Virus record (IMG/VR): IMGVR_UViG_3300045988_081534
From: a virus
Reading direction: 5' to 3' (one strand)
Length of the DNA stretch: 64,000 nt
Shown: piece after piece, positions 17,437 to 17,491 of the stretch
How the letters are laid out: each line of letters begins with the position of its first letter
Position numbering within the stretch: position 1 is the first letter of the stretch
Notes under the pieces: generated by a model
The model's database searches: none
The model's input: only the letters and a program-made list of their open reading frames with translations
Told to the model about the DNA's origin: nothing
Program-made: the position numbers and the translations under genes

Positions 17437-17491
17437 TTTGAAAGAAAAATTTGGTGAGCCTGCGCGAACGGAAACTCGGAGCAGAACGAGG
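17437..17491 (-). repeat. conserved 55-nt GC-rich element, copy 1, between a terminator and a promoter
   Basis: 54/55 nt identical to 44399..44453. Confidence 0.8.

Follow-up and report, generated by a model that had tools for sequence, protein, structure and literature searches.

What does a short sequence do that a large phage genome carries twice, each time just behind a terminator? The question is raised by the 64,000-nt stretch of phage DNA analyzed here (the window), for which a sequence-only reading had reported two 55-nt copies of one element, at 17437–17491 and 44399–44453, identical at 54 of the 55 positions. Both the coordinates and the identity have been reproduced, and no match was obtained in 100 dinucleotide-preserving shuffles. 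The duplicated block delimited by the repeat finder is slightly longer and comprises 56 nt (17436–17491 and 44398–44453, 55/56 identical).

The two loci and the signals around them

The window comes from a large phage genome (related contigs cluster at 146–148 kb), and all its genes are encoded on the minus strand. Both copies are situated on this strand as well, each about 12 nt beyond the point where the U-tract of an intrinsic terminator ends, in agreement with the initial description. Copy 1 (17436–17491, minus strand, CCTCGTTCTGCTCCGAGTTTCCGTTCGCGCAGGCTCACCAAATTTTTCTTTCAAAA), which is the ancestral, gene X-linked copy with orthologs in 24 distinct variants (see below), directly follows the terminator (17507–17535, minus strand) of an SPFH/Band_7 gene (17540–18436), and copy 2 (44398–44453, minus strand) directly follows the terminator (44464–44492, minus strand) located after the tRNA-Met gene (44577–44652). 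The block starts with CCTCG and ends with TCAAAA; it is flanked by ACTAG and TCCTT in copy 1 and by GTTGT and ATGGG in copy 2, and no inverted repeat has been identified by the repeat finder. A MITE or an IS-like element was considered and rejected, as neither terminal inverted repeats nor a target-site duplication are present.

Further copies in the window have been sought with blastn-short, mismatch searches, relaxed bipartite regular expressions and a sequence-only covariance model, and only the same two were found; the check for additional copies that the sequence-only reading had suggested thus yields none in the window and many orthologous ones in related phages. Two of its background statements have to be corrected. 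The measured G+C content of the window is 36.1%, that is, about 64% AT instead of approximately 70 percent, and other long repeats, claimed to be absent, do exist: two different genes are preceded by 100% identical copies of a 60-nt promoter/5′UTR cassette (29974–30033 and 32537–32596, minus-strand sequence TCTCCTTTATTTTTTTATTTTTATATGATATAATATATATAGAAAGTTAAGAAAGGAAGT), and many promoter-derived repeat families are observed. Copying of regulatory cassettes seems to have happened repeatedly in this genome.

Downstream of copy 1 lies a gene encoding a protein of 153 aa (16897–17358, minus strand, one in-frame TAG), here called gene X. Its promoter (17397–17425, minus strand) is composed of the –35 box TGGATT (17420–17425), a 17-nt spacer and the TG-extended –10 box TGATATAAT with the hexamer at 17397–17402. 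It fits the promoter family of the phage itself, and has not been called by a simple consensus scan because its –35 box matches the consensus at only three of six positions. The assertion that both copies precede a promoter is therefore valid for copy 1; after copy 2, the consensus scan detects no clear sigma-70-type promoter.

Gene X heads a conserved run also comprising genes for a small transmembrane protein, PhoH, an SPOR-domain protein and a lysin. No family has been assigned to its product by Pfam, PHROGs or a PDB profile search. The AlphaFold2 model is confident (pLDDT 91.6) and consists of an alpha-beta3-alpha N-terminal domain and a long helical hairpin; the topology of the N-terminal domain weakly resembles that of dsRBDs, with E about 0.1, which is not significant. 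The neighbors of gene X, that is, the SPFH/flotillin-like, small membrane protein, PhoH and lysin genes, are constant. Inside the run, at 15319–15371, the terminator following the PhoH gene reaches right up to the ribosome-binding site that serves the SPOR-domain and lysin genes. No promoter is visible here, and the expression of the lysin may depend on terminator read-through.

The location of the element between a terminator and a gene brings up the possibility of an RNA function, and a small RNA gene was among the initial suggestions. No Rfam family matches the element, either at the gathering threshold or with E-values up to 10, the nearby matches being driven by the hairpin of the neighboring terminator. 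The 55-mer folds no better than its shuffles on either strand (z from –0.7 to 0), and the RNAfold check of both strands proposed earlier, with z about –0.5, gives no significant fold. In the alignment of the variants, RNAalifold yields –0.59 kcal/mol with three invariant pairs for the sense strand and –2.25 kcal/mol for the antisense strand, with zero compensatory changes in both cases. Neither copy is preceded by a promoter or has a plus-strand U-tract terminator, and the element has no promoter of its own, as the terminator of the preceding gene abuts it. These results speak against a small RNA gene. More generally, a role of the element as RNA, whether as an unstructured protein- or RNA-binding signal in read-through transcripts or as an antisense or small RNA, seems very unlikely to us: read-through transcripts would indeed include the element, given its place on the transcribed strand, and the weakly dsRBD-like domain of gene X (again, at a non-significant E-value) is in line with such a role, but the lack of any Rfam match, fold or covariation on either strand and of signals for a separate transcript, as well as the conserved spacing to a DNA promoter described below, argue against it.

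Conservation in related phages

Relatives have been collected by scanning IMG/VR, metagenome contigs and species genomes for exact and degenerate patterns, complemented by protein-guided retrieval. The element is present upstream of gene X homologs in 24 distinct variants from related TAG-recoded gut phages with genomes of about 148 kb, at gene X identities down to approximately 40%; the N-termini of these homologs read MSVV.AIYKAP, MKLIKSIYKAP or MNLVKAIYKAP. Close relatives of the window have both copies at the same two loci, and more distant ones have a single copy, always upstream of a gene X homolog, so that contigs of about 100–148 kb contain at most two. The gene preceding the element, together with its terminator, varies among the relatives, encoding SPFH, GIY-YIG endonuclease, metallophosphatase or other proteins.

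The element is retained in phages with gene X identity of only 40–44% (L128, L135, L137–L140). One phage of the same class (L129) lacks it, the terminator running directly into the same kind of promoter; since the promoter persists there, the element is not essential for the existence of the promoter. In 76 more distant phages, whose loci were retrieved via the SPFH gene, neither gene X nor the element is found. The element is conserved across the family, and the pair in the window is not the recent chance duplication that it could have been taken for.

Twenty-five sequences align without gaps over 72 columns, and no indels occur inside the element. Among the 24 gene X-linked variants, 21 of the 55 positions are invariant: CG in the CTCGT block, the whole TCCGAGTTT, a single G located three bases past it, a single C in the spacer, and AA.TTTT in the A/T tract. 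In copy 1 (minus strand), the CTCGT block with its invariant CG occupies positions 17486–17490, the most conserved core CTCCGAGTTTCCG positions 17469–17481, and the conserved block CAAATTTTT positions 17445–17453, the latter at exactly 18 nt from TCCGAGTTT and separated from it by a spacer of variable sequence. The string TCCGAGTTT is the same in all variants, including those retrieved by protein, part of this invariance being due to its use as the search anchor for part of the data set. Most gene X-linked copies also have a left extension, (A/G)CTAG (17492–17496, minus strand; alignment columns 9–13), which is outside the duplicated block. The CTCGT block and CGA of the core form a small dyad, TCG-N8-CGA; it is the sole symmetry of the element, in which no strong dyad or direct repeat is seen, and this pattern alone occurs six times per strand in the window.

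Conservation of the block exceeds that of gene X. Compared with copy 1, the element is 63–95% identical, the ranges for gene X DNA and the gene X protein being 59–80% and 40–74%, respectively; in one relative (L012) the values are 95% for the element and 69% for the gene. The position relative to the promoter is conserved as well: TCCGAGTTT is separated from the –10 hexamer by 77–79 nt in 24 of 24 variants, in which the distance from –10 to ATG is 35–44 nt (a 9-nt range in the 5′UTR length). The intervening 11–13 nt between the element and the promoter cannot be aligned among the variants. With the –10 box placed at –12 to –7, the element spans approximately –100 to –46, and the downstream –35 box is TGGATT or TTGATT (3–4 matches out of six) combined with a TG-extended –10 box.

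Because of the fixed distance to one promoter and the copying in front of tail-fiber genes, the element is most likely a regulator binding site rather than an RNA gene. On balance, and with moderate confidence, we consider it a portable upstream cis-regulatory DNA site that acts together with the adjacent promoter. The earlier suggestion of a protein-binding or activator site gains from the conservation exceeding that of adjacent coding DNA, the absence of indels, the 77–79 nt spacing to the –10 box and the restriction of changes in copy 2 to free positions (see below), and the binding itself is predicted on the grounds of these sequence features. The occurrence of at most two copies per contig, with no degenerate ones in the window, is more in keeping with a dedicated operator or upstream activating sequence than with a class of promoters.

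In the mechanism we propose, the element would be the upstream regulatory sequence of the promoter of the gene X run (small membrane protein, PhoH, lysin), built of three conserved parts: the CTCGT block, the invariant core TCCGAGTTT(CCG) and, after a free spacer with the fixed length of 18 nt, the A/T tract CAAWTTTTT. A sequence-specific protein, encoded by either the phage or the host, would bind the GC-rich part CTCGT....TCCGAGTTTCCG and act on RNA polymerase at the TG-extended –10 promoter approximately 78 nt downstream; the A/T tract could possibly serve for an alpha-CTD contact or for bending, as at class-I-type activated promoters or with phi29 p4. In the sub-lineage of the window, the tail-fiber module has gained an approximately 50-nt copy of the site between its leader and the preceding terminator, by which another TAG-recoded and probably late module would have come under this control. 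We infer protein binding, activation rather than repression, and timing in this scheme, the “late” character of the latter being deduced from the downstream genes only. The window encodes a MarR-like winged-helix protein (3554–3949); nothing links this protein to the element. Known boxes have been compared by eye (sigma-54, ECF, LexA (Cheo box), Spo0A, cre, CodY, LytTR-type repeats and CRISPR-repeat-like solitary repeats), and none of them fit the family-conserved positions.

The main rival of this interpretation is that the element itself is a bipartite promoter, recognized by an alternative sigma factor or a phage RNA polymerase, with TCCGAGTTT as a –35-like box and CAAWTTTTT as a –10-like box 18 nt apart; transcription of both gene X and the fiber module would start just past the A/T tract, the sigma-A-type promoter being the second of a tandem pair. 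The arrangement TCCGAGTTT-N18-CAAWTTTTT is indeed present in all variants, with a spacer that is fixed in length (within the range of 16–19 nt) and free in sequence, the element precedes two TAG-recoded and plausibly late modules, and no good sigma-70 promoter is seen after copy 2. A class of promoters would, however, be expected at further sites, whereas genome-length contigs contain no more than two copies and relaxed searches match nothing else in the window; moreover, conservation reaches well upstream of the putative –35 box, to CTCGT and CTAG, and the 77–79 nt spacing to the downstream sigma-A –10 box would have no explanation. We therefore regard a bipartite promoter as unlikely.

A function outside transcription, such as a packaging signal, a replication or primase site, or a partition site, would agree with a strictly conserved non-coding sequence found once or twice per genome. 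Still, the window has no iterons, AT-rich unwinding region or long palindrome at the element, and neither terminase nor replication-initiation genes in its vicinity; linkage to one promoter at a fixed distance would not be expected of such a site, and neither would its absence from L129. This makes a non-transcriptional role extremely improbable.

Origin of the second copy and possible exchange between copies

Copy 2 has been identified only in the sub-lineage of the window, where it precedes a small gene and tail-fiber genes. The first gene after it (44039–44296, minus strand) encodes 85 aa with two TAG codons, and is followed by TAG-recoded tail-fiber-like genes to approximately 39829. At the homologous site of four relatives (L152–L155), recognized by an 85-aa gene that is 54% identical, the terminator is followed by TTTATGC-TCAAAACCCTGGACA and the element is absent; copy 2 is therefore a lineage-specific insertion of approximately 50 nt between the terminator and TCAAAA..TGGACA. 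Microhomology is the probable reason for the TCAAAA at its right edge. The CTAG found ahead of the gene X copies is missing from copy 2, which is similar to the A/B-type gene X copies of the window’s own sub-lineage.

Six variants of copy 2 have ten variable positions, none of them among the 21 that are invariant in the family (hypergeometric estimate about 0.005), and these positions also vary in the gene X copies. As the copy-2 loci have been retrieved by protein similarity and not by the motif, this pattern is not forced by the search motif; since the variable positions miss the invariant ones, copy 2 is under the same constraint as copy 1. Reading the sequence downstream of copy 2, we find a candidate weak extended –10 box, TGtCATTAT (TGTCATTAT, 44358–44366, minus strand), missed by the consensus scan, at 79 nt from TCCGAGTTT of copy 2, which would correspond to the geometry seen in copy 1. 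The argument for the same geometry at copy 2 depends on this weak box.

The two copies of one genome are not in every case alike. T7 and T24 are found in both copies of the window lineage, C7 and A24 in both copies of contigs 075249 and OGNP01000003, and contig OGGG01000034 is mixed; in contigs 084596 and 093451, a window-like copy 2 is paired with a much more divergent copy 1. The derived bases C7 and A24 shared by both copies point to either sequence exchange between the copies or a shared constraint, and the pattern of matches and mismatches within genomes would mean occasional exchange (or, again, shared constraint) combined with mosaic genomes. Mosaicism is seen directly in OGGG01000034.1 (L112/L122), which is 99.4% identical to the window around copy 1 and 81–92% identical around copy 2 and the tRNA array.

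Two contigs contain junctions at the element. One of them (L115, OGPY01001342.1) joins window positions 5351–17491 to 44398–45801, that is, the left flank of copy 2 to gene X, as would a 27-kb deletion; the other (L119, OGPC01001942.1) joins 35370–44453 to 17436–19713, that is, the SPFH terminator to the fiber side, as would a circle or tandem junction. They correspond to the two reciprocal products expected of recombination between direct repeats, and equally to those expected of a short-k assembler at a 56-nt repeat, and we consider them probable assembly artifacts. Several other contigs end inside the element (L002, L006, L007, L135, L136). The contig end at positions 1–80 of the reverse strand of L159 is an inverted duplication centered on the terminator before the element, which also looks like an assembly artifact.

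These observations bear on an explanation in which the element is a substrate or a relic of recombination, a short homology (hotspot or site-specific site) that allows modules and regulatory cassettes to be reshuffled; its conservation would then be due to repeated gene conversion and not to a transcriptional role. The presence of both reciprocal junctions as contigs, the contig ends within the element, the derived bases common to both copies of one lineage, the mosaic surroundings of the copies and the exact duplication of the 60-nt promoter cassette in the window are all compatible with it. On the other hand, recombination cannot account for the single-copy, strongly conserved and promoter-fixed state in most of the family; a deletion of the L115 type would remove the fiber genes; short-k assemblers, such as those with k=55, produce just such chimeras and broken contigs when they meet a repeat of 56 nt; and the element has no terminal inverted repeats or target duplication, with no recombinase seen adjacent to either copy in the window. 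We find this explanation quite unlikely.

The regulatory-site interpretation may be carried further. The element could be a portable “address label,” an enhancer-like cassette of about 50 nt by which one dedicated factor times the TAG-recoded late modules (gene X–PhoH–lysin and tail fibers), and which spreads between terminator–promoter junctions by short-patch recombination, with direct copies recombining in nature, as the 27-kb deletion and its reciprocal in L115 and L119 would exemplify. We give this extended version only a slim chance.

Comparison with known sites and the genome setting

Late promoters of phages infecting Gram-positive bacteria offer the closest parallels to an upstream regulatory site: the phi29 p4 site is centered near –82 of promoter A3, Alt repeats are located upstream of Plate in TP901-1, and late activators of the RinA/ArpU type act at one late promoter. 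The element shares with these sites the position of a dedicated DNA site upstream of the –35 box at one or two promoters per genome, and the fixed distance to a promoter with a poor –35 box, in front of lysis and structural modules. However, it has no sequence similarity to them and no clear inverted or direct repeats, and the promoter exists without it in L129; activation in the present case is a prediction.

The UP element, reportedly the site of RNA polymerase alpha-CTD with the consensus NNAAAWWTWTTTTNNNAAANNN at –59 to –38, also lies upstream of the –35 box, and the 3′ part of our element, AAATTTTTCTTTCAAAA, fits this consensus at 13 of 14 specified positions. It is situated, however, approximately 5 nt further upstream (about –62 to –46) and thus displaced from the position of the UP element; moreover, conservation in the family is limited to the first half of this part (CAAWTTTTT), and the GC-rich invariant core has no counterpart in UP elements.

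In the large genomes of T4-type phages, PeSL cassettes, composed of a promoter and a stem-loop, are duplicated and shuffled. The window similarly has a short regulatory cassette copied to a second terminator–promoter junction, mosaic genomes around it, and a second, 60-nt, cassette duplication. Unlike PeSL cassettes, the block duplicated here includes neither a stem-loop nor a core promoter; it is an upstream GC-rich site, present as a single copy in most relatives.

To our knowledge, transcriptional control in large uncultured stop-codon-recoded gut phages is essentially uncharted, and a role proposed for recoding is that late and lysis genes are translated with a delay. A positioned site at the head of a lysis-associated run, copied to the fiber module, would provide a handle on the transcriptional layer of this timing, and the element may be useful as bait for its regulator, as a marker for the phage family and as an example of regulatory cassette re-use. 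Should it serve just a single accessory gene as an operator, it would be an ordinary promoter-proximal element. A promoter-proximal regulatory site is not surprising in itself; the finding is solid, the element shares no sequence with the known sites compared above, and the phage group has no cultured representative.

The recoding is evident from the window itself, TAG being read as sense since many genes contain it in frame. The window contains 31 tRNA genes (array 37242–55674), one tmRNA and one suppressor tRNA with the CTA anticodon. The latter is located at 38301–38376, and is labeled “Pyl” by ARAGORN. In-frame TAG codons are numerous in some genes, with nine in the lysin gene (13052–14461), eight in the GIY-YIG gene (4906–5817) and five at 26037–26747. 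The hypothesis that the element marks all TAG-recoded genes has been rejected, as TAG-containing genes are scattered and most have no element.

The phage-encoded tmRNA (48788–49103, Rfam 113.9 bits) is situated inside the tRNA array and encodes the tag peptide DNDYFENYLAA. Two unusual tRNA-like sequences are also observed. A 117-nt tRNA match at 46121–46237 (Rfam 49.8 bits), absent from the ARAGORN output, contains a 55-nt insert in the anticodon region, and a sub-threshold tRNA-like sequence at 45847–45930, with the GTA anticodon loop and a long variable arm, scores best as tRNA-Sec (33.2 bits versus the cut-off of 47).

No cultured phage relatives have been found at the DNA level, and a tblastn search with gene X against 50,697 phage records gave no match; the single weak match to a cultured phage is that of PhoH to Geobacillus virus E3. 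A literature search with the core string returned unrelated primers only, and the paper on phAss-1, which belongs to a different group of TAG-recoded gut phages, makes no mention of such an element (PMC10607447). A host origin of the sequence has been rejected, as a 31-nt degenerate pattern matched one of 185,579 species genomes, and this one record is the phage itself. The matching record is a 147,780-nt contig (L127, CALCFD010000051.1) binned in the MAG “uncultured Eubacterium sp.”, and this binning may be either a hint at the host or a binning artifact.
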